Part shown: in pieces, positions 751 to 9,027 of the stretch | Position numbering within the stretch: the stretch's first letter is position 1 | Layout: each line of letters begins with the position of its first letter | NCBI GenBank assembly: GCA_008080745.1 | Contig: SHMX01000001.1 | Location: forward strand, 600,001 to 632,000 | Reading direction: 5' to 3' | DNA: 32,000 nt | From: Candidatus Thorarchaeota archaeon | GTDB taxonomy: Archaea > Asgardarchaeota > Thorarchaeia > Thorarchaeales > Thorarchaeaceae | Translations under genes and position numbers: made by a program | The notes under the pieces: model-generated | Told to the model about the DNA's origin: nothing | Seen by the model: the letters and a program-made list of their open reading frames with translations, nothing else | Databases searched by the model: none

Positions 751-870
751 TACGGGAAAATATTCCGGAAAACAAGATGTACAAGATAGAGACGTAATCC
801 CATAAGCCCCACAATCAAAACGGCAGATAGAAATCTAATGCGATAGAATTCTCGTAATATTTAATAGTCA

Positions 871-883
871 CCGAACATTTCCC
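871..883 (-). promoter_or_regulatory. Putative TF box (reverse complement GGGAAATGTTCGG) between a TATA-like tract (855-866) and the ATG at 891
   Basis: 12/13 match to GGGAAATATTCGG seen at 2559-2571 (+) and 8532-8544 (-). Confidence 0.55.
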
Positions 884-890
884 ATATATT

Positions 891-1382
891 ATGAAATCGT
901 TGAAGGGTAGAACCATTATTCTTGGTCTGGTTCTCATAATGGCTGTTAGCCTGTTACCAAGTTCTGTTGTTGCGTATTCCAGCAATAGCTCACTGTTATC
1001 AATAACCCATGCCGATTATGGTGACTTGGACGATGACGGAGCAGATGATGATGTAATTACAGAGGCCCGAATTGGGTCGCTCACCGGTTTTCCAGAATTC
1101 ATTATCTGTACAGTGACATTTACACTTACATTACCGTCAGGAGCCAATTATACAACTGACGTAGTGATATGTGGGATATATGATGTAGTAGATCTTACAA
1201 TCGAATGGTACGACCATGCAACCGAATCAGGATGGTATAAGATCCACGCAGAGATGGAATCAGTCACTATGTTATGGGAATTCTCAGCTGATGCATATGT
1301 TATATTCGACCCACCAGAAGAGGGTCCACCAGGTACACCCTGGGTAAGAGTCCTTGTAAATAACCAAGTACCCTTCTGGTAA
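891..1382 (+). CDS. Secreted hypothetical protein with acidic Ca-binding-like motif and Pro-rich C-terminus
   Basis: Signal peptide (MKSLKGR + hydrophobic stretch + VVA/YS); 'DYGDLDDDGADDD'; beta-rich body; 'DPPEEGPPGTP'. Confidence 0.75.
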   Translation: MKSLKGRTIILGLVLIMAVSLLPSSVVAYSSNSSLLSITHADYGDLDDDGADDDVITEARIGSLTGFPEFIICTVTFTLTLPSGANYTTDVVICGIYDVVDLTIEWYDHATESGWYKIHAEMESVTMLWEFSADAYVIFDPPEEGPPGTPWVRVLVNNQVPFW

Positions 1383-1411: not shown

Positions 1412-2530
1412 TTGAGTAATGGCCTTACGGCCAATCATCTCAGAGTGTTAGTTGCTCTTCAACAAATACCCCTTGGTACGTATGACCAACTCTCCGAGAA
1501 AGTAGGCCTAGCAAAATCAGTAGTTTATGGATACGTCCAAGAGCTAGCAGAATGGCCTGGAACTGGAGAGTCCTACTTTGTAGTTGCTGCAAACCCACAC
1601 CTAGAAAATCTAGGACTGCAGCTAGTTGATGTACTTGTGGAGGCAGACAGTGAACCTAAGTTAGAAGCAGTCGAAAGGATTTGTCAGAAACACCCATACA
1701 CGGTATACAGAGCTAGATGTTTTGGAGACACTAATGGCATGCTAACCCAGTTCCGTATACCAATTGGAAACACAGGAAAAATAGAAGAACTCTTCGGCAA
1801 AGCATCAAAAAGAGGGGTTTGTGACGATTTCAAAATCTTACCTTTTGTCGATTCAACACCTACGTACACCACAATGGACATAGATCACTGGAACCATGAC
1901 ATAGGTCATTGGGAATTCAATTGGGAGAAATGGTTTTCAGAAGAAGCCAAACTTAATCAGCCAACAGAAACTAAGCAGGCCCTGGGCTCTGAGAAGTCTT
2001 GGCTATCTCGAGAGGACATCATCATTATTCGAGAATTGACCAAGAACGCACGACAGAAAAACAAAGACATCATGGCGACTTTGAAAAAAGCAGGAATTGA
2101 AATGACTTCTCAGGCGTTTAGCAGAAAATTAGCAAGAATCAAAAAACGATGTATCAATGGATATCGTGTTCAGATAAACCCGTTTGCATTTGATTCTTAT
2201 AATCCAGTTCTTATCTGGGGTGAAGGAAAAATCGAAGATATTCAGTCACTTCAAGCGAGAATTTCAAAGAATCCAATACCATTTACATCAACCTTCAAAA
2301 CAGACGATGGAAATCTGTTCTGGTACCTCCATCTCCCCGCAACACATCTTTCTGATCTCCTCTTTCATCTCCGTCCCATTCTACACGACCTTAGATTTAA
2401 TCACATAGACTATGTACGAAGTAGCACTTACTATCTCTGGCCGGAAACATTCAATGAGAAAGAACACGACTGGAAAAATGATTCCAATTTCATGATTGAC
2501 AGTGTCCTTGACCAGATAAGTGATCGATAA
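1412..2530 (+). CDS. Tandem (HTH + effector domain) x2 Lrp/AsnC-like transcriptional regulator
   Basis: HTH1 'LRVLVALQQIPLGTYDQLSEKVGLAKSVVYGYVQEL' followed by an Lrp-like 'NPHLENLGLQLVDVLVE'; HTH2 'REDIIIIRELTKNARQKNKDIM...SQAFSRKLARI' followed by 'GYRVQINPFAF'. TTG start. Confidence 0.7.
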   Translation: MSNGLTANHLRVLVALQQIPLGTYDQLSEKVGLAKSVVYGYVQELAEWPGTGESYFVVAANPHLENLGLQLVDVLVEADSEPKLEAVERICQKHPYTVYRARCFGDTNGMLTQFRIPIGNTGKIEELFGKASKRGVCDDFKILPFVDSTPTYTTMDIDHWNHDIGHWEFNWEKWFSEEAKLNQPTETKQALGSEKSWLSREDIIIIRELTKNARQKNKDIMATLKKAGIEMTSQAFSRKLARIKKRCINGYRVQINPFAFDSYNPVLIWGEGKIEDIQSLQARISKNPIPFTSTFKTDDGNLFWYLHLPATHLSDLLFHLRPILHDLRFNHIDYVRSSTYYLWPETFNEKEHDWKNDSNFMIDSVLDQISDR

Positions 2531-2558: not shown

Positions 2559-2601
2559 GGGAAATATTCGGTAAATATATATAATATGAAGAATATATCC
2601 G
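2559..2601 (+). promoter_or_regulatory. Promoter of the S8 protease gene: TATA box flanked by inverted operator boxes
   Basis: GGGAAATATTC-GGTAAATATATATAATATGAA-GAATATATCCG; GAGAGGT RBS-like motif at about 2631-2637. Confidence 0.7.
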
Positions 2602-2644: not shown

Positions 2645-4921
2645 ATGAGAATTGAACGGAAAATGCTGGCGGCATTATTATTCATTGCCACCTTATTAAG
2701 TGTGAGCGGGCAATTCTATGGGGCACCCATTCATACACAAGTAATTGTATATGAGCCTGTAGAACAGCCATACTCACCGTCATGGGATTCTGATCTAAAC
2801 AGAATCCACGACGATCTTGATAAGAAACTCAGAGATATGAGTTTTGGTGATTCGGTAAACGTGATAGCCAAAGGCGCATCTATTGAACTACTAGAAGCTG
2901 CTGCTGCGGATTATAATTGTGAGGTCAGTTCACGATATCCAGCTATCAACGCTATAGCTCTTCAAATCGATAAACATCTAATCGATGATTTCAGCAAGGA
3001 CGTTAGAATCCATCATCTTGAGGATGCAGATCTTGAGATGAAGACGTTTCTTGACAGCTCACTAGATGTTACGGAAATACCCGAGGCGTATGCAAATTAT
3101 CCCTACCATGGTGAAGGAATGGTCATTGCCATTGTAGATACTGGTATTGACAACAGCCATATGGACCTAGATGATGACGATCCATATAATGATCATAAAG
3201 TCATAGCATTTAGGGACGTTATCAATGGTAACGACGACTTTTCATTACCCATTGATGCTTATGATGATCAAGGACATGGTACCCATTGTGCCAGCATCGC
3301 TGCTGGAACCGGTGAGGCAAGTAGCGGGCAATACAGAGGTGTTGCATATGCATCACAGCTGGTCGGCGTAAAAGTTCTGAGTGGAGAGGGCAGCGGAACA
3401 GAACAGCAAATCCTTGATGGGATGCAATGGGTCATAGACAATAAGGATGTCTATGGTATAGACATAGTCTCAATGAGTCTAGGATCAAACAGTGCAACTC
3501 CATCTGATGGAACTGATTCACTCTGTCAAATGGCTGATGCAATGATGGATGCGGGATTACTTCTATTTGTAGCGGCTGGTAATCACGGATATCCAGAGTG
3601 GTTGTATGGATACAATACTATTGGATCTCCAGCAGCTTCAGAAAAGGCAGTAACAATCGGTTCCGTTAATGATGATGGAAGCTGGTCTTCATTTAGCAAC
3701 GAGGGGCCAACAGGTGATGACCGCATTAAGCCAGATGTGATGGCAGTTGGAGCTGATGTCACAGCCGCTAAAGCTGATTCGACCAATCAGTATGTGGCAT
3801 ATTCTGGAACCAGTATGGCAACACCAACCGCAGCTGGTATTGGAGCACTTCTGCGCCAAGCAAATCCCAGTCTCAACCCATCTCAATTGAAAGATGTATT
3901 GCAGGATACTGCAATGGATATGGGAGATCCTGGAAAGGACAATACCTACGGTTCGGGAATCATTCAGACCAAGCAGGCTCTTGATGTGGTGACAGGAGGA
4001 ATAGACAATCCACCAACAGTCAGCATCGAGGCACCACTTGACCAGAGTACGGTTTCAGATACCTACCGGATTCTTGTTGCAGCTAGTGACGATAACTCTG
4101 TTACATCCGTTGAGCTTGCAATAGATGGCACTTGGATTGATATTACCGCTAATTATGATGGTACCCATTATTATTATGACTGGGATACAACCACATATTC
4201 CGAAGGACTTCACACTATATCAGCCAGGGCGACCGATGACGCAAGTCAGACTGCTGAGACCACCATTGAAGTAACGGTCTCAAACGAGGGGCCCATTGAC
4301 AATCCACCCACCTGTGTAATAGCTGATCCCACTGAGGGAGAAACAATCACAGGTACTCATAGAATTCTTGTCTCAGCAAGTGATGATAATGGCATCAATG
4401 CTATCGAGGTAAGAATCGATGGGGGAAGTTGGATTGATATAACTGGTAACTTTGACGGTGCATACTATTACTATGACTTTGATTCAACAACTGTTGATGA
4501 TGGAACACATGGAATAGAGGCAAGAGCCATTGATACCATCTCCCAGGCCACTTCTGATACGATTAGTGTCACTGTCGAAAATGAGATTGTTCAAAATGCA
4601 ATGTTTATTGCCGACATAGAGGTCAGTAGTTGGAGCTTTTGGATCTTCACTTATTGTGAAGTCGAGGTCACCATAGTGGCAGGTACACCCTCAGACTATG
4701 TGGGTCTATCTGGTGCAACGGTGAACTTGGAAACAACATCTCCACTGGGAAGTACCAAATCCTATTCTGACACTACCGACTCATCAGGTGTAGCCTACTT
4801 TGACATCGGTTGGATATCTTCAGGTACGTGGGTGTTCAAGGTAATTGATGTCACACATGCCGATTACACATATGATCCATCTCTCAACATAAACGGTGAC
4901 ACCGTAGAAGTGGATCTCTGA
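2645..4921 (+). CDS. Secreted subtilisin-like serine protease (S8) with propeptide, two Ig-like domains and a C-terminal beta-sandwich
   Basis: Signal peptide; catalytic motifs 'IVDTG', 'HGTHCA', 'AAGN', 'GTSMATP'; two 98-aa 'DNPPT...WDTT/FDST...H' Ig repeats starting at 4004 and 4298. Confidence 0.95.
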   Translation: MRIERKMLAALLFIATLLSVSGQFYGAPIHTQVIVYEPVEQPYSPSWDSDLNRIHDDLDKKLRDMSFGDSVNVIAKGASIELLEAAAADYNCEVSSRYPAINAIALQIDKHLIDDFSKDVRIHHLEDADLEMKTFLDSSLDVTEIPEAYANYPYHGEGMVIAIVDTGIDNSHMDLDDDDPYNDHKVIAFRDVINGNDDFSLPIDAYDDQGHGTHCASIAAGTGEASSGQYRGVAYASQLVGVKVLSGEGSGTEQQILDGMQWVIDNKDVYGIDIVSMSLGSNSATPSDGTDSLCQMADAMMDAGLLLFVAAGNHGYPEWLYGYNTIGSPAASEKAVTIGSVNDDGSWSSFSNEGPTGDDRIKPDVMAVGADVTAAKADSTNQYVAYSGTSMATPTAAGIGALLRQANPSLNPSQLKDVLQDTAMDMGDPGKDNTYGSGIIQTKQALDVVTGGIDNPPTVSIEAPLDQSTVSDTYRILVAASDDNSVTSVELAIDGTWIDITANYDGTHYYYDWDTTTYSEGLHTISARATDDASQTAETTIEVTVSNEGPIDNPPTCVIADPTEGETITGTHRILVSASDDNGINAIEVRIDGGSWIDITGNFDGAYYYYDFDSTTVDDGTHGIEARAIDTISQATSDTISVTVENEIVQNAMFIADIEVSSWSFWIFTYCEVEVTIVAGTPSDYVGLSGATVNLETTSPLGSTKSYSDTTDSSGVAYFDIGWISSGTWVFKVIDVTHADYTYDPSLNINGDTVEVDL

Positions 4922-4943: not shown

Positions 4944-4978
4944 GGAATGAAGGTTCGTCCTTCATTCCTTTTTCTTTT
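4944..4978 (+). terminator. Hairpin plus U-tract terminator after the protease gene
   Basis: Perfect 10-bp stem GGAATGAAGG / CCTTCATTCC, loop TTCGT, followed by TTTTTCTTTT. Confidence 0.75.
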
Positions 4979-5048
4979 CAAACTGGATTCGTTTCCTTGA
5001 CTGAAAAAGAAGAGTAAGCATTACTTTTTAACAGGCTTCGATAAATGG

Positions 5049-6263
5049 ATGTCCGAGGGACGATATTTGGTTTGGTCGATTCCAAAGAGGAATACGCTCT
5101 TTTTGATTTTGATAATGGTCAGCCTTTGTTCGTCCATAACCAGTATTGAAGAATACACCTTAGCAGATCAAAACATAGAAACCCGAGCTGTCTGGCTAAA
5201 CCATTATGCCTTCAATTCTGATGCAAAACGGAATGAAACATTAGAAAAGATTCGTTCAGCAAACCTGAACACGGTATTAATGATATCTCCTCCGATAGGA
5301 GATAACAACGGTTGGTCCGAGATAGAGGATTTCTCAGAAATGCTAGAAGAGTTGGTAGAATATGACATAAGTGTACATGCTTGGATTGCCAACCTATACA
5401 GAGTAAAAGGACAAAGAGCCGATTTTAGTAACACCACGGAACAGTCAGAGCAAATCAATTGGGCATTGGAAATTCTGCGCACATATCCAAAACTCGATGG
5501 AGTTCATTTTGATTACATACGAACAGAGAATTTGGATTACGTTAATGCAACAAAAATGAACGCAATCAGTTCCGTGATTGAACACACCAAAGAGAGAATC
5601 AGAGAAGAGTTTCCCGAAAAATACCTTACCACCGCCGGATGGTCTCTATCAGGAGAGATAAGGACACCACAAGACGAGCTTCCCGAATGGTATCTCGAAT
5701 GGTTCAATCAGTATGAAGACGATCCAGTAAACAGATGGAGTAAAGCCGCTTACAGCCACAATGGACATCCCACATGTTTTGGTGTTCAGCAAGATCCTGT
5801 AATTTGGCTATCTCAAGGCGAATTGGATTTTCACATCTCGATGGAGTATTGTTATGAAACAGACTGGTGGACAGGTGAAGTGGATATCTGGAATACCTTC
5901 CCCTACGAGGTGGTGGAACATATCTTCATGGGACTTGGTTGGTATTCAGGAGTTTGGGAGGAGGAGAGCTACACAGAAGAAATGGTTGCAACAGAGATTG
6001 TGAATAAGATTCAGTACGGCAGATCTCATAAAATCACAGGATTCAGTATATTCGAACTTGGTGAGCCTTACAACAATGATAGTATTCTAATCTCGAAACT
6101 GGCAGGAGATGAAAATGATCCATTCTGGAACAAGGCAATATCCGGATTCAAAGCTGAATCTCATAGTCCTATTGACCTTTTCCAAGAGAATATCTTCCCA
6201 ATAGCTCTGATAGGAATCATATCACTAGTTGTTGTATATGCAATCAAAAGGAAGAGAAAATAA
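5049..6263 (+). CDS. Exported glycoside hydrolase-like family 10 (GHL10/DUF187, YddW/DigH-like) protein with C-terminal membrane anchor
   Basis: 'RAVWL...NLNTV', 'ISVHAWI' and 'LDGVHFDYIR' motifs; N-terminal hydrophobic signal; C-terminal TM plus KRKRK. Confidence 0.75.
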   Translation: MSEGRYLVWSIPKRNTLFLILIMVSLCSSITSIEEYTLADQNIETRAVWLNHYAFNSDAKRNETLEKIRSANLNTVLMISPPIGDNNGWSEIEDFSEMLEELVEYDISVHAWIANLYRVKGQRADFSNTTEQSEQINWALEILRTYPKLDGVHFDYIRTENLDYVNATKMNAISSVIEHTKERIREEFPEKYLTTAGWSLSGEIRTPQDELPEWYLEWFNQYEDDPVNRWSKAAYSHNGHPTCFGVQQDPVIWLSQGELDFHISMEYCYETDWWTGEVDIWNTFPYEVVEHIFMGLGWYSGVWEEESYTEEMVATEIVNKIQYGRSHKITGFSIFELGEPYNNDSILISKLAGDENDPFWNKAISGFKAESHSPIDLFQENIFPIALIGIISLVVVYAIKRKRK

Positions 6264-6264
6264 G

Positions 6265-6296
6265 AAAAAAGGAACCTCAGAGGGGTTCCTTTTTTT
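6265..6296. terminator. Bidirectional hairpin terminator between the convergent GHL10 and esterase genes
   Basis: AAAAAAGGAACCTC-AGA-GGGGTTCCTTTTTT: stem with an A-run before and a T-run after. Confidence 0.75.
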
Positions 6297-6301
6297 ACAT
6301 G

Positions 6302-8479
6302 TTATTCTATCTGTTTTCGAATTATATCAAAGATAGAGAAATCCAATAGGATGTTAGAACCAGTGGTTTGGTATGTCAGAGTCACCGTAAGTTCATAGGA
6401 TCCCGATCCCCAATAACTATGGACCATGATATACATGACCCCAGTAGAGGGGTTTTCAATGGTGATATCCTCGCCACCCCATGTACTTGCCTTGAAGTCA
6501 TAGTTAGAAGTAGTTGGCTCGGAACCCATTTTACCATATATGTCAAAATCTGTGAACCATCCAGAAGATAGTTGAACTCGCATTGACACACAGTCTTGAT
6601 CGATTACTATGAACCAAACTTCACTTGATCCACTGGAAAGGGAACCACCAACCGGAACTCCATTCTCCAGTTCATTCTCTACAGCATTTAGCACTTGCAC
6701 CGTGATTTCAGCTGACCCAACATTTCCTGCTGCATCTGCTGCCTCACAAGTAATTATGTGGTCTCCATCGGTATAACTGGTAGTATCCCAGGTAAAGGAG
6801 GAATCAGTAGAAACCTCAATACCATCAATCAATATGCGATAACTAGTCACACCTACATCATCAGTTGCAGAAAAATCGATGTTTGCATTTCCAGACACGG
6901 TTGCTCCATCAACAGGGGATAGAATTTCTACCTCTGGAGGAGTAGTATCAATATATGAATTATCAACTACAACAGAGATTGACGAACTTCCAAGATTGCC
7001 ACTAGTATCAATAGCCTCACAAAGAATAGTATGATATCCATCTTCGTAAGTTTCCGTGTCCCACAGGTAGTGGGTTTCGGCAGATACTGAAATACCATCA
7101 ATCTTGATACAGTATGAGTCAACACCCTTGTCATCTTCTGCTGAGAAGATTATTTCAACGACATCCTTCACAGTTGCACCATCTGTTGGTTGACTAATTG
7201 TTACTACAGGCAGGGAATCATCTATATTATCGACAGTAACAGATATCTCTTCAGAACCCTGGTTGCCCAATGTATCGATTGCTTCGCACCGTATGAAGTG
7301 GGTACCATCGGACCATCCAGTTGAGTCCCAGTGGTATGTGTTCGATTCTGATACAAGAACATCATCAATGTAGGTCTTTATTTCTGAAACACCGCTTTCA
7401 TCTTGAGCTGAAAAGCTAATAGTAACGATGCCATCCACAATAGAACCGTCAGTGGGGGATTCAATTGTTATTGTTGGAGGAGTCTGATCGATTCCTTCAT
7501 GAGTACGAGCCTCAACGATTCCTGCATTTACATCAGCATCGAGCTCTTCACCAAAAAGATACTTATGAAATGATACATCACCAACTAAGAAATATTGAAG
7601 ATGAGCTATAGCATATTTACAAGCAAGTCTATGGTGTTCCTCAAGACTTATTGTAGGACTATTATCACCCATTCCGCTATTTTCATCCATGTATTGATAG
7701 TGATTTGCACCAACTATACCAATAAAGATCTTTGACACATCTGAGAGTGTACCATATACATAATCAGGATCGTTTCTAGCAACGTCATCCAATGTTCCTT
7801 TTTGAATCATTCCAGGAACATCAATTCCAGCAACCTCATCATACATATCAGGATCAGGCTGTCCAGGAAACATATTCGTCTTGTTTGCAGGAGCCATCGC
7901 AATAAATGTGCTGATTCGAGAATCACGATTTGTTGCCAACAATATAGCCCGAGCTCCCATTGAGTAGCCTACTGCAGCAAACTTTGATACATCGAACATT
8001 CCTGCGAGGAAATAGGAAGTATCAGCGTTCCTATTAATCACCCAATCAATACAATCAGAAATATCCTGTGCATTTCTTTCATGATTAGTTGAAAACAACC
8101 CATCACTAAAGTCAATGACAGCAACTATGTAACCCCAGCTTGCCTGCCATTCTGCATACCACTCATATTGAGATGGATCAGAATTGAATCCCCTCCCAAA
8201 TATGACGACAGGATATGGAGCGTTATCCTGTGAAGGATTTGTATCAGTACCACCTTCTGTTGCAGGATAGTATAATTCAACGTCTATGGTGTACCCAGAT
8301 TCATCCACGAAACTTCCTGTTGTGAACCCTACTTGATAGGCACCAGGAGAATCAGGAGAAGTTGTAGAGAGTCTACTAAATCTGACAGCAACACTTTCTG
8401 TGGAAGTCTGAAAGCCAGAATACAGGACTCCACTAGTAATGATGGTCAGAAGTAGTAAGATAGCAAATGTCTTTTTCAT
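6302..8479 (-). CDS. Secreted alpha/beta hydrolase (cutinase/PETase/chlorophyllase-like) with three Ig-like domains and a PPC domain
   Basis: Signal peptide; 'PYPVVIFGRGF', 'ASWGYIVAVID', nucleophile 'VGYSMGA', acid 'GTLDDVA', His 'GANHY'; three '(D)xxPP/LP...WD(S/T)...DG.H.I.CEA' repeats; PPC-like 'DFDIYGKMGSEPTTSNYD...YIMVHSY'. Confidence 0.85.
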   Translation of the reverse strand: MKKTFAILLLLTIITSGVLYSGFQTSTESVAVRFSRLSTTSPDSPGAYQVGFTTGSFVDESGYTIDVELYYPATEGGTDTNPSQDNAPYPVVIFGRGFNSDPSQYEWYAEWQASWGYIVAVIDFSDGLFSTNHERNAQDISDCIDWVINRNADTSYFLAGMFDVSKFAAVGYSMGARAILLATNRDSRISTFIAMAPANKTNMFPGQPDPDMYDEVAGIDVPGMIQKGTLDDVARNDPDYVYGTLSDVSKIFIGIVGANHYQYMDENSGMGDNSPTISLEEHHRLACKYAIAHLQYFLVGDVSFHKYLFGEELDADVNAGIVEARTHEGIDQTPPTITIESPTDGSIVDGIVTISFSAQDESGVSEIKTYIDDVLVSESNTYHWDSTGWSDGTHFIRCEAIDTLGNQGSEEISVTVDNIDDSLPVVTISQPTDGATVKDVVEIIFSAEDDKGVDSYCIKIDGISVSAETHYLWDTETYEDGYHTILCEAIDTSGNLGSSSISVVVDNSYIDTTPPEVEILSPVDGATVSGNANIDFSATDDVGVTSYRILIDGIEVSTDSSFTWDTTSYTDGDHIITCEAADAAGNVGSAEITVQVLNAVENELENGVPVGGSLSSGSSEVWFIVIDQDCVSMRVQLSSGWFTDFDIYGKMGSEPTTSNYDFKASTWGGEDITIENPSTGVMYIMVHSYWGSGSYELTVTLTYQTTGSNILLDFSIFDIIRKQIE

Positions 8480-8501
8480 TTTGCAGTCTCCATTGTGGGT
8501 A

Positions 8502-8544
8502 GGGAAATATTCTTTTAATTATATATATCTGCCGAATATTTCCC
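8502..8544 (-). promoter_or_regulatory. Promoter of the esterase gene: TATA box flanked by a perfect 11-bp inverted repeat
   Basis: Minus strand reads GGGAAATATTC-GGCAGATATATATAATTAAAA-GAATATTTCCC, ending 22 nt before the ATG. Confidence 0.75.
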
Positions 8545-8677
8545 TTATTTGCAATAACAGATTCATTCGGAAATCAAACTAGCATAAATGAAAATTCGAA
8601 ATTGTGATTCAGCGGAAGAGTGCTAATATAGCAAAGTCATAATACAGACGACACATTATTAGAATATGGTGTACTAA

Positions 8678-8896
8678 ATGAAAGAAATAGCAATTAAAGA
8701 CCATGAGAAGGGTGGAACCTACAAGATATATGTCAAGCGCGAAGAAGATGGTGGAATTGCTATTTATAAAAAGCCTGATGACCCAAAAAAGTTTGTATCA
8801 ATTGTTGGAAATCGGGTATATATCCATGGAGACTGGATTAGTTCCGAGGCATTCAAAGTAGTTGCTTCTGTAATCGATTGTATCGACCTGATCTAA
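8678..8896 (+). CDS. Small soluble hypothetical protein
   Basis: 72-aa ORF with ATG preceded by GGTG, natural-looking composition, fills an otherwise long intergenic gap. Confidence 0.6.
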   Translation: MKEIAIKDHEKGGTYKIYVKREEDGGIAIYKKPDDPKKFVSIVGNRVYIHGDWISSEAFKVVASVIDCIDLI

Positions 8897-8951: not shown

Positions 8952-9027
8952 AGGAAATATACACTGTAATCATTGGTGTGTATCTAAGGTTATCATAGAG
9001 GAGATGGCCTTAATCAGGAAATATACA
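8952..9027 (+). repeat. 12-bp direct repeat AGGAAATATACA (8952-8963 and 9016-9027) upstream of the giant surface protein gene
   Basis: Two exact copies 64 bp apart; shares the GGAAATAT core with the protease/esterase boxes. Confidence 0.6.

Follow-up and report, generated by a model that had tools for sequence, protein, structure and literature searches.

The locus carries genes for a small exported protein, a candidate regulator and two secreted hydrolases. The small exported protein (891..1382, + strand; 163 aa) has a signal peptide and a DxDxDG-type acidic motif, and its gene is always located 5' of that of a tandem (fused) Lrp/AsnC-type protein (1412..2530, +; 372 aa), our candidate for the factor that binds the boxes described below. 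The first candidate target gene encodes a secreted S8 subtilase with Big_7 Ig domains (2645..4921, +), and the second a secreted PETase/cutinase-like alpha/beta hydrolase with Ig domains (6302..8479, -); we call them the protease and the esterase. An Lrs14/ArsR-like membrane wHTH gene occupies positions 295-750. All positions refer to the window, by which we mean the whole 32-kb stretch of DNA analysed, i.e. C1:600001-632000 of the G000 assembly (3.16 Mb, 19 contigs).

The small exported protein matches no Pfam family and is characterized by the conserved motifs Y-x-DLD-x-DG-x-x-DD, WY..ESGWY and FDPP..GP.G.P. Its identity is 54-58% in the relatives G013 and L037 and 32% in a paralogous module. 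A short hairpin, TGTGG GGGAAA CCACA, is found in the 29 nt (1383-1411) that separate the small-protein gene from the regulator gene. Directly after the protease stop codon, at 4944-4979, there is a 10-bp stem (GGAATGAAGG / CCTTCATTCC) with a 5-nt loop, followed by TTTTTCTTTTC, which looks like a terminator.

Besides G000, the genome that carries the window, the comparisons involve a congeneric genome, G001 (L048), and three relatives with orthologous loci, G013, L037 and L039. Pattern matches were compared between the window, a 12.6-kb G013 locus and a 19-kb L037 locus. About 10.5% of the G000 genome is intergenic, and TBP is encoded in the assembly. Five short contigs, C14, C15 and C17-C19, have a GC content of 62-65% versus about 41% elsewhere in the assembly and are likely contaminants.

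Anatomy of the shared promoter element

The initial annotation had pointed to two 43-mers, one in front of the protease gene (2559-2601, +) and one in front of the esterase gene (8544-8502, -), that are identical at 36 of 43 positions and share a left box, a 21-bp spacer with a TATA tract and an inverted right box. Both the coordinates and the sequences are exactly as described. In the protease element, the spacer separates the left arm GGGAAATATTC from the right arm GAATATATCCG, and in the esterase element the same left arm is paired across the spacer with GAATATTTCCC, its perfect complement (11-bp arms). Although the arms are symmetric, the spacer is directional, because the 36/43 agreement in gene orientation drops to only 28/43 when one copy is reversed. 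The similarity between the two copies ends sharply at both edges of the 43 bp.

When the left arm is extended by a conserved GG, it becomes the 13-mer GGGAA-ATA-TTCGG, and the proximal 13-mer is an inverted, weaker copy of it. The box consensus is sGGAA-WWr-TTCGG, with the TTCGG end facing the TATA on both sides. The 13-mer has an A/T centre flanked by complementary inner GAA/TTC positions, whereas its outer two positions are not complementary, which makes it a pseudo-palindrome. In the protease promoter-operator (2559..2601, +), the distal box at 2559-2571 (GGGAAATATTCGG) is followed by a BRE-like sequence at 2570-2575, the TATA at 2576-2583 (TATATATA) and the proximal box at 2589-2601 (AAGAATATATCCG). 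The corresponding parts of the esterase promoter-operator (8502..8544, -) are found at 8544-8532, 8533-8528, 8527-8520 and 8514-8502. The centres of the two boxes are 30 bp apart, or about three helical turns, and the TATA lies at the exact centre of the element.

The promoter of the small-protein/tandem-Lrp operon (860..883, +) is simpler. Its TATA (TTTAATAG, 860-867) is followed by a single box, CCGAACATTTCCC, at 871-883 (reverse complement GGGAAATGTTCGG). This box ends 7 nt before the ATG at 891 and, judged by its sequence and position, is a probable autoregulatory site on a near-leaderless transcript. A looser 15-bp variant of the box, GGGAAAATATTCCGG, is present at 753..767 (+), directly after the stop codon of the wHTH gene and at the left edge of the DNA that is absent from the congeneric genome.

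The middle of the element resembles a core promoter of its host. The tRNA upstream regions of G000 contain a purine-rich AAAG-type BRE and then TTTTAWAR, 22-30 nt before the mature 5' end. Positions 7-14 of the spacer read TATATATA (TTTATATA or TTTAAATA in the orthologs) and are preceded by GGYARA, which is the same form as in the tRNA promoters; the element has, like host promoters, an A/T-rich 8-mer with a purine-rich BRE directly upstream. Archaeal transcription starts about 22-27 bp downstream of the TATA. If the geometry of the tRNA promoters is applied, the start sites are predicted at about 2606-2608 for the protease and about 8496-8498 for the esterase. Such starts would result in 5' UTRs of about 38 nt and about 18 nt, respectively, both with GAGGT/GGAG Shine-Dalgarno motifs, of a kind that the G000 genome has in strong excess 10-20 nt 5' of its start codons.

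Two further kinds of sequence were noted in the neighbourhood of the esterase promoter. At 8558-8599 there are half-box-like motifs, ATTCATTCGG and AAAATTCGAAATT (core AATTCGAA, an 8-bp palindrome), on the upstream side of the distal box of the esterase and at distances of roughly 26 and 55 bp from it; these could be auxiliary sites or chance. The sequence AGGAAATATACA occurs at 8952-8963 and at 9016-9027, 64 bp apart, upstream of the gene of a 2149-aa giant protein; the genome contains no other copy. This sequence is similar to the left arm (GGAAATAT) but has no TTCGG, and its first copy directly follows a TATA-like tract.

Rarity and conservation of the element

The exact 11-mer GGGAAATATTC had been reported three times in the window, always in intergenic DNA. 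We found the same three sites (2559 +, 8502 + and 8534 -), all of them intergenic, and 4 occurrences in the entire 3.16 Mb. With one mismatch allowed, the window contains 6 matches compared to 1.05 expected, a number reached by none of 100 shuffles. A whole-genome scan with either 43-mer (about 6.3 million positions, both strands) returned the query itself with a score of 43, its partner with 36 and the reversed partner with 28, and the rest did not exceed 27. Similarly, a genome-wide search for the two arms with a spacer of 15-27 bp and up to 5 mismatches found only the two promoter sites and weak matches; two of the latter were checked, and both are coding, one being conserved as protein sequence in the congener. 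Because the full 43-mer occurs genome-wide only at two promoters, the element does not represent a repeat dispersed without regard to gene starts, which would have spoken against the original proposal. Both of its copies in the 3.16 Mb lie 22-44 nt 5' of start codons.

Two sets of matches were discarded. At G000 C4:7228 and G001 C8:3933, sequences that nearly match the full element are coding and lie inside a conserved 723-aa ORF. In public genome and metagenome contigs, the strict composite pattern retrieved one unrelated family, an Ignavibacteria sigma-factor-like ORF, and we consider these to be chance matches. The shorter sequence GGAAANNTTCGG occurs 6 times in the 3.16 Mb, of which 4 sites are intergenic and 3 of those 4 are inside the 8-kb island. 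The fourth intergenic site, at G000 C5:123,940-123,975, consists of AGAAATATTC, 6 nt and CCGAATTTTTCC. It is located about 70-100 nt 5' of the gene of a 479-aa multi-pass membrane protein (start 124040), and this gene may be another target.

A gapless alignment can be made of the two G000 elements and the protease promoters of G013, L037 and L039. In these five promoters, the length of the 21-bp spacer is invariant, so that the boxes are phased by whole helical turns in all of them, and 17 columns do not vary (left-box AA, TTCG, the TATA core and GAAT), whereas the flanking DNA has diverged on both sides; this footprint comes from 3-5 genomes that are related to one another and not independent. 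Of the two boxes, the distal one is better conserved, with TTCGG invariant in 4 of the 5 promoters. Beyond GAAT, the proximal box is poorly conserved in the orthologs. A footprint of the esterase promoter was impossible because no close homolog of the esterase catalytic domain was found (none at E <= 1e-20 in a near-length word-indexed search).

The pattern GGAANNNTTCGG has 25 matches in G000, or about one per 126 kb. In the window and the G013 and L037 loci, however, it matches only the promoters of the protease, esterase and small-protein genes, and every one of these matches is followed by 4-5 nt and then a TATA tract. In G000, G013 and L037 alike, the small-protein/regulator operon has a single box between the TATA and the start codon, which ends 7-8 nt before the probable ATG. 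A site in the control region of an Lrp-family gene, present in three genomes, is what autoregulation would be expected to leave in the sequence.

Dyad symmetry between the arms of the hydrolase promoters is preserved even where both sides have changed, as 80% of the cells pair versus 30-49% in slid controls; in five related sequences such covariation is only suggestive. We also considered whether the 7 differences between the G000 copies avoid the columns conserved elsewhere. They do not, as 2 of the 7 fall in the 19 of 43 conserved columns, and the argument was dropped. The view that the element is shared for regulatory reasons is supported by every computational test applied, namely by its restriction to two promoters, its tRNA-promoter-like centre and its conservation before orthologous protease genes.

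The candidate regulator and its linkage to the element

The 372-aa protein consists of a wHTH (residues 7-46) and a RAM-like domain (56-153) followed by a second wHTH (200-247) and a second RAM-like domain (248-339). It repeats, in a single chain, the arrangement typical of the Lrp/AsnC family, an N-terminal wHTH and then a RAM domain. Pfam recognizes only a marginal N-terminal wHTH. When compared to solved regulators, a profile of the family (88 members) matched FL11/PH1519, LrpA and PH0140 over residues 3-90 and ST1022 over residues 193-298 with E-values of 1e-10 to 5e-12 (about 5e-11 for FL11). The AlphaFold (AF2) model has a pLDDT of 95 and a pTM of 0.92 and contains two HTH + beta-alpha-beta-beta-alpha-beta units. 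In Foldseek searches, each half retrieved Lrp/AsnC regulators, and the whole chain retrieved NirDL (4ch7) with a TM-score of 0.52-0.62. BLASTP of the N half against the C half detected no similarity, and the duplication is visible by profile and fold only. Because the best whole-chain match, NirDL, is a fused AsnC-like enzyme and not a regulator, the tandem Lrp may have a role other than DNA binding.

Prediction of two copies of the protein gave an ipSAE of 0.75 compared to 0.00 for the best control, with a contact agreement of at least 83%, a partner pLDDT of at least 86 and an interface in the RAM-like domains. The same mark is attained by 20 of 30 proteins with structures solved as pairs and by 1 of 23 with structures solved as single chains. 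The model supports self-association of the regulator, with the qualification that the signal may reflect likeness to solved Lrp assemblies. We also tried to derive the preferred bases with the contact code of FFRPs (residues 24, 34-37 and 39), an attempt that was dropped as the relevant residues of HTH1 (Y24/A34/K35/S36/V37/Y39) fit the published rules poorly. The asymmetry of the outer arms might be the preference of a chain with two different HTH domains.

The regulator family is small, as a search of 1.84 billion proteins yielded 252 representatives (E <= 0.001), with several paralogs per genome in the archaeal family of G000. In one genome of this archaeal family, the source records of the regulator homologs carry the names Thorarchaeota or Asgard, and G000 is accordingly regarded as an Asgard archaeon of the Thorarchaeota type. 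Orthologs of the regulator are 64%, 61%, 51%, 49% and 48% identical to it; a single-sequence search of the genome contigs collection found no relatives.

A gene for a homolog of the small exported protein precedes the regulator gene in every contig recovered, and the operon formed by the two adjoins an S8 protease gene in G000, G013, L037 and L039. Among the 86 family genomes, the composite pattern is present only in G000 (twice) and G013 (once), and the same two genomes are the only ones with a close regulator ortholog (E <= 1e-95). As the strict pattern used for this count was derived from the same sequences, the count demonstrates a lack of chance matches and co-occurrence, and nothing more. 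The element is also carried by L037, where the regulator ortholog is 61% identical.

The congeneric genome G001 shares the flanks of the island, with 87% identity over 1-751, and has both the 404-aa gene and the giant gene; the synteny is maintained at 68-87% identity. Missing from G001 are the DNA from 752 to about 5146, with the small protein, the regulator and the protease, and that from about 6083 to 8678, with the esterase and its promoter. G001 contains neither the composite element nor a close ortholog of the regulator. The regulon appears, from these comparisons, to reside in variable DNA and to have been moved or lost as a complete cassette.

A paralogous module (L049; G000 C5:37270 and C5:41623) encodes a 170-aa exported protein and a 386-aa tandem Lrp. 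Its motif, CTATGATAG followed after 0-3 nt by ATTAGTAAA, occurs exactly twice in the genome, once next to the TATA in the module's own promoter and once upstream of the gene of an exported 637-aa protein 4 kb away. This arrangement hints that each module carries its own operator.

Interpretation and relation to known systems

The most likely explanation, to which we assign a probability of about 0.55, is that the element is a composite archaeal core promoter-operator that is bound by the tandem Lrp, most likely for repression. The parts of this explanation differ in strength. That the element is a specific operator-promoter is very probable, and the tandem Lrp is probably its binder, while the odds that repression is the main mode are roughly even. 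The genes involved probably form a small, self-contained regulon.

In such a promoter-operator, a BRE/TATA module in the middle of the element would be flanked by two 13-bp Lrp/FFRP-type boxes. Relative to the predicted start, the distal box would abut the BRE at about -48 to -36, and the proximal box would lie at about -18 to -6, between the TATA and the start. The 372-aa tandem Lrp/AsnC protein, whose gene lies immediately upstream, is the best candidate for the binder; one of its chains would supply two non-identical wHTH domains and thereby suit a pseudo-palindromic box. Two chains paired via their RAM-like domains could then occupy both boxes on one face of the DNA and clamp the TATA. Occupancy of the proximal box would block the recruitment of RNA polymerase, as in LrpA-type repression, and occupancy of the distal box would hinder or modulate the action of TFB/TBP. 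By binding the single proximal box at 871-883, the tandem Lrp would furthermore control the operon that encodes it. Its RAM-like domains might accommodate a small-molecule ligand, probably similar to an amino acid, that relieves or alters DNA binding, and expression of the secreted protease and esterase would in this way depend on nutrient status.

The same element and the same binder could instead serve mainly in activation, which we consider possible but distinctly less probable. The tandem Lrp at the distal box would recruit TBP/TFB in the manner of Ptr2 or LysM, and the proximal box would only dampen expression or autoregulate at high protein concentration, resembling the switch of Ss-LrpB. 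The higher conservation of the distal box, with its TTCGG invariant in four of five promoters, is in agreement with such a role, and archaeal Lrp activators work just upstream of the BRE/TATA (PMC2995911). However, the TATA and the BRE-like sequence already have the strong tRNA-type form, which is found more typically in promoters under repression than in those dependent on an activator, and the sole box in the regulator operon lies between the TATA and the start, which is the position of a repressor.

It is unlikely that the operator-promoter is bound by some other factor, either the Lrs14/ArsR-like membrane wHTH protein (295-750) or an unlinked regulator, and that the linkage to the tandem Lrp is coincidental. 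The wHTH gene is nearby, and its stop codon is immediately followed by a 15-mer resembling the box. Nevertheless, this protein is disfavoured as the binder because G001 retains a 92% identical ortholog of it and yet has neither the element nor the island. In G013 and L037, the element travels with the tandem-Lrp operon with no such wHTH gene adjacent, and the box itself resembles the Lrp/FFRP form.

Less probable still is a promoter without a dedicated regulator, in which the esterase gene would have acquired a copy of the protease core promoter, and the symmetric flanks would be basal context or a DNA cruciform/hairpin. A recent assembly of the island is plausible as both genes reside in DNA absent from the congener, and the arms of the esterase copy can pair perfectly over 11 bp (-15.2 kcal/mol, z -4.8). 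Against this, orthologous promoters from genomes with regulators of 49-65% identity retain the boxes between diverged flanks, three genomes have the lone box in the promoter of the regulator operon itself, and none of the tRNA promoters listed has such boxes. That the inverted repeat is an RNA hairpin, serving either in a leader or as the terminator or 3' end of the operon upstream, is very improbable even though the protease element begins 28 nt after the regulator stop codon and the arms covary, given that the esterase and G013 copies (2 of 4) have no co-directional upstream gene, no T-run as in a terminator follows the stem, the other three copies fold unremarkably (z -1.2 to -1.8), the TATA is in the loop, so that the predicted start lies downstream of the element, and there is no Rfam match at E <= 1.

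The promoter-operator bound by a tandem Lrp can be extended to a broader proposal, which we regard as doubtful. The element could be the place where a portable, Asgard-specific sensing circuit meets the DNA. This circuit would consist of secreted hydrolases, an exported protein of acidic character and a regulator with two Lrp units in one chain. The regulator would clamp the TATA via two asymmetric boxes, its ligand would come from the extracellular hydrolase activity or from the exported partner, and an operator sequence of its own would have evolved in every paralogous cassette. If true, there would be a feedback between external digestion and transcription.

In the literature searched, we found no study of specific gene regulation or of mapped promoters (TSS maps) in Asgard archaea and nothing directly relevant on fused Lrp regulators. 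The locus provides a compact and directly testable regulatory case for these organisms, with a defined 43-bp promoter-operator and a conserved putative autoregulatory site, and it can be tested with recombinant proteins, with no need to culture the organism. The asymmetry of the site would be explained by the unusual fused architecture of the linked candidate regulator, and the candidate targets are extracellular hydrolases, a PETase-like esterase among them.

The element introduces no new principle, and its parts have counterparts in several known systems. LrpA of Pyrococcus furiosus represses its own gene from a site that borders the TATA downstream, where it blocks the recruitment of RNA polymerase (PMC2995911). 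The box at 871-883 and the proximal boxes have a similar position, the former likewise in the regulator's own promoter. Unlike in the LrpA operator, the candidate here is a single-chain tandem Lrp, the targets have a second box upstream of the BRE, and these targets are secreted hydrolases. Ptr2, LysM and Ss-LrpB act from upstream sites, Ss-LrpB with several phased boxes (PMC2995911). The Ptr2 site of Methanocaldococcus jannaschii resembles the distal box in being an Lrp-family site directly upstream of the BRE/TATA, but Ptr2 activates by TBP recruitment and does so without a TATA-proximal downstream partner box. The control region of Ss-LrpB also has boxes spaced by whole helical turns, for which cooperative binding and DNA wrapping have been proposed (PMC2995911), whereas the present element has two inverted boxes 30 bp apart with the TATA exactly between them.

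The form of the box resembles that of archaeal FFRP sites, abcdeWWWedcba, in which complementary arms of 5 bp enclose three A/T pairs within 13-15 bp, exemplified by the FL11 site CCGAAA[W3]TTTCGG (PMC2715240). As in the sites of FL11 (PH1519) and other FFRPs, there are 13 bp, an A/T triplet in the centre and arms of the CGAA/TTCG type, and the FL11 optimum is close to the CCGAA-TAT-TTCCC found here (PMC2715240). The arms differ from those of FFRP sites in being non-identical (GGGAA versus CCGAA), and the candidate protein is a fused pseudo-dimer instead of a homodimer. The tandem HTH-RAM-HTH-RAM chain has its counterpart in the fused AsnC-like siroheme decarboxylases NirDL/AhbAB (PDB 4ch7). 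These, however, are enzymes of haem d1/haem biosynthesis, and the profile of the present family is nearer to true regulators (E-values of 1e-10 to 5e-12 versus 9e-5 for NirDL). Furthermore, the tandem Lrp proteins described here belong to several paralogous modules per genome, each of which includes an exported protein and in many cases also a protease.
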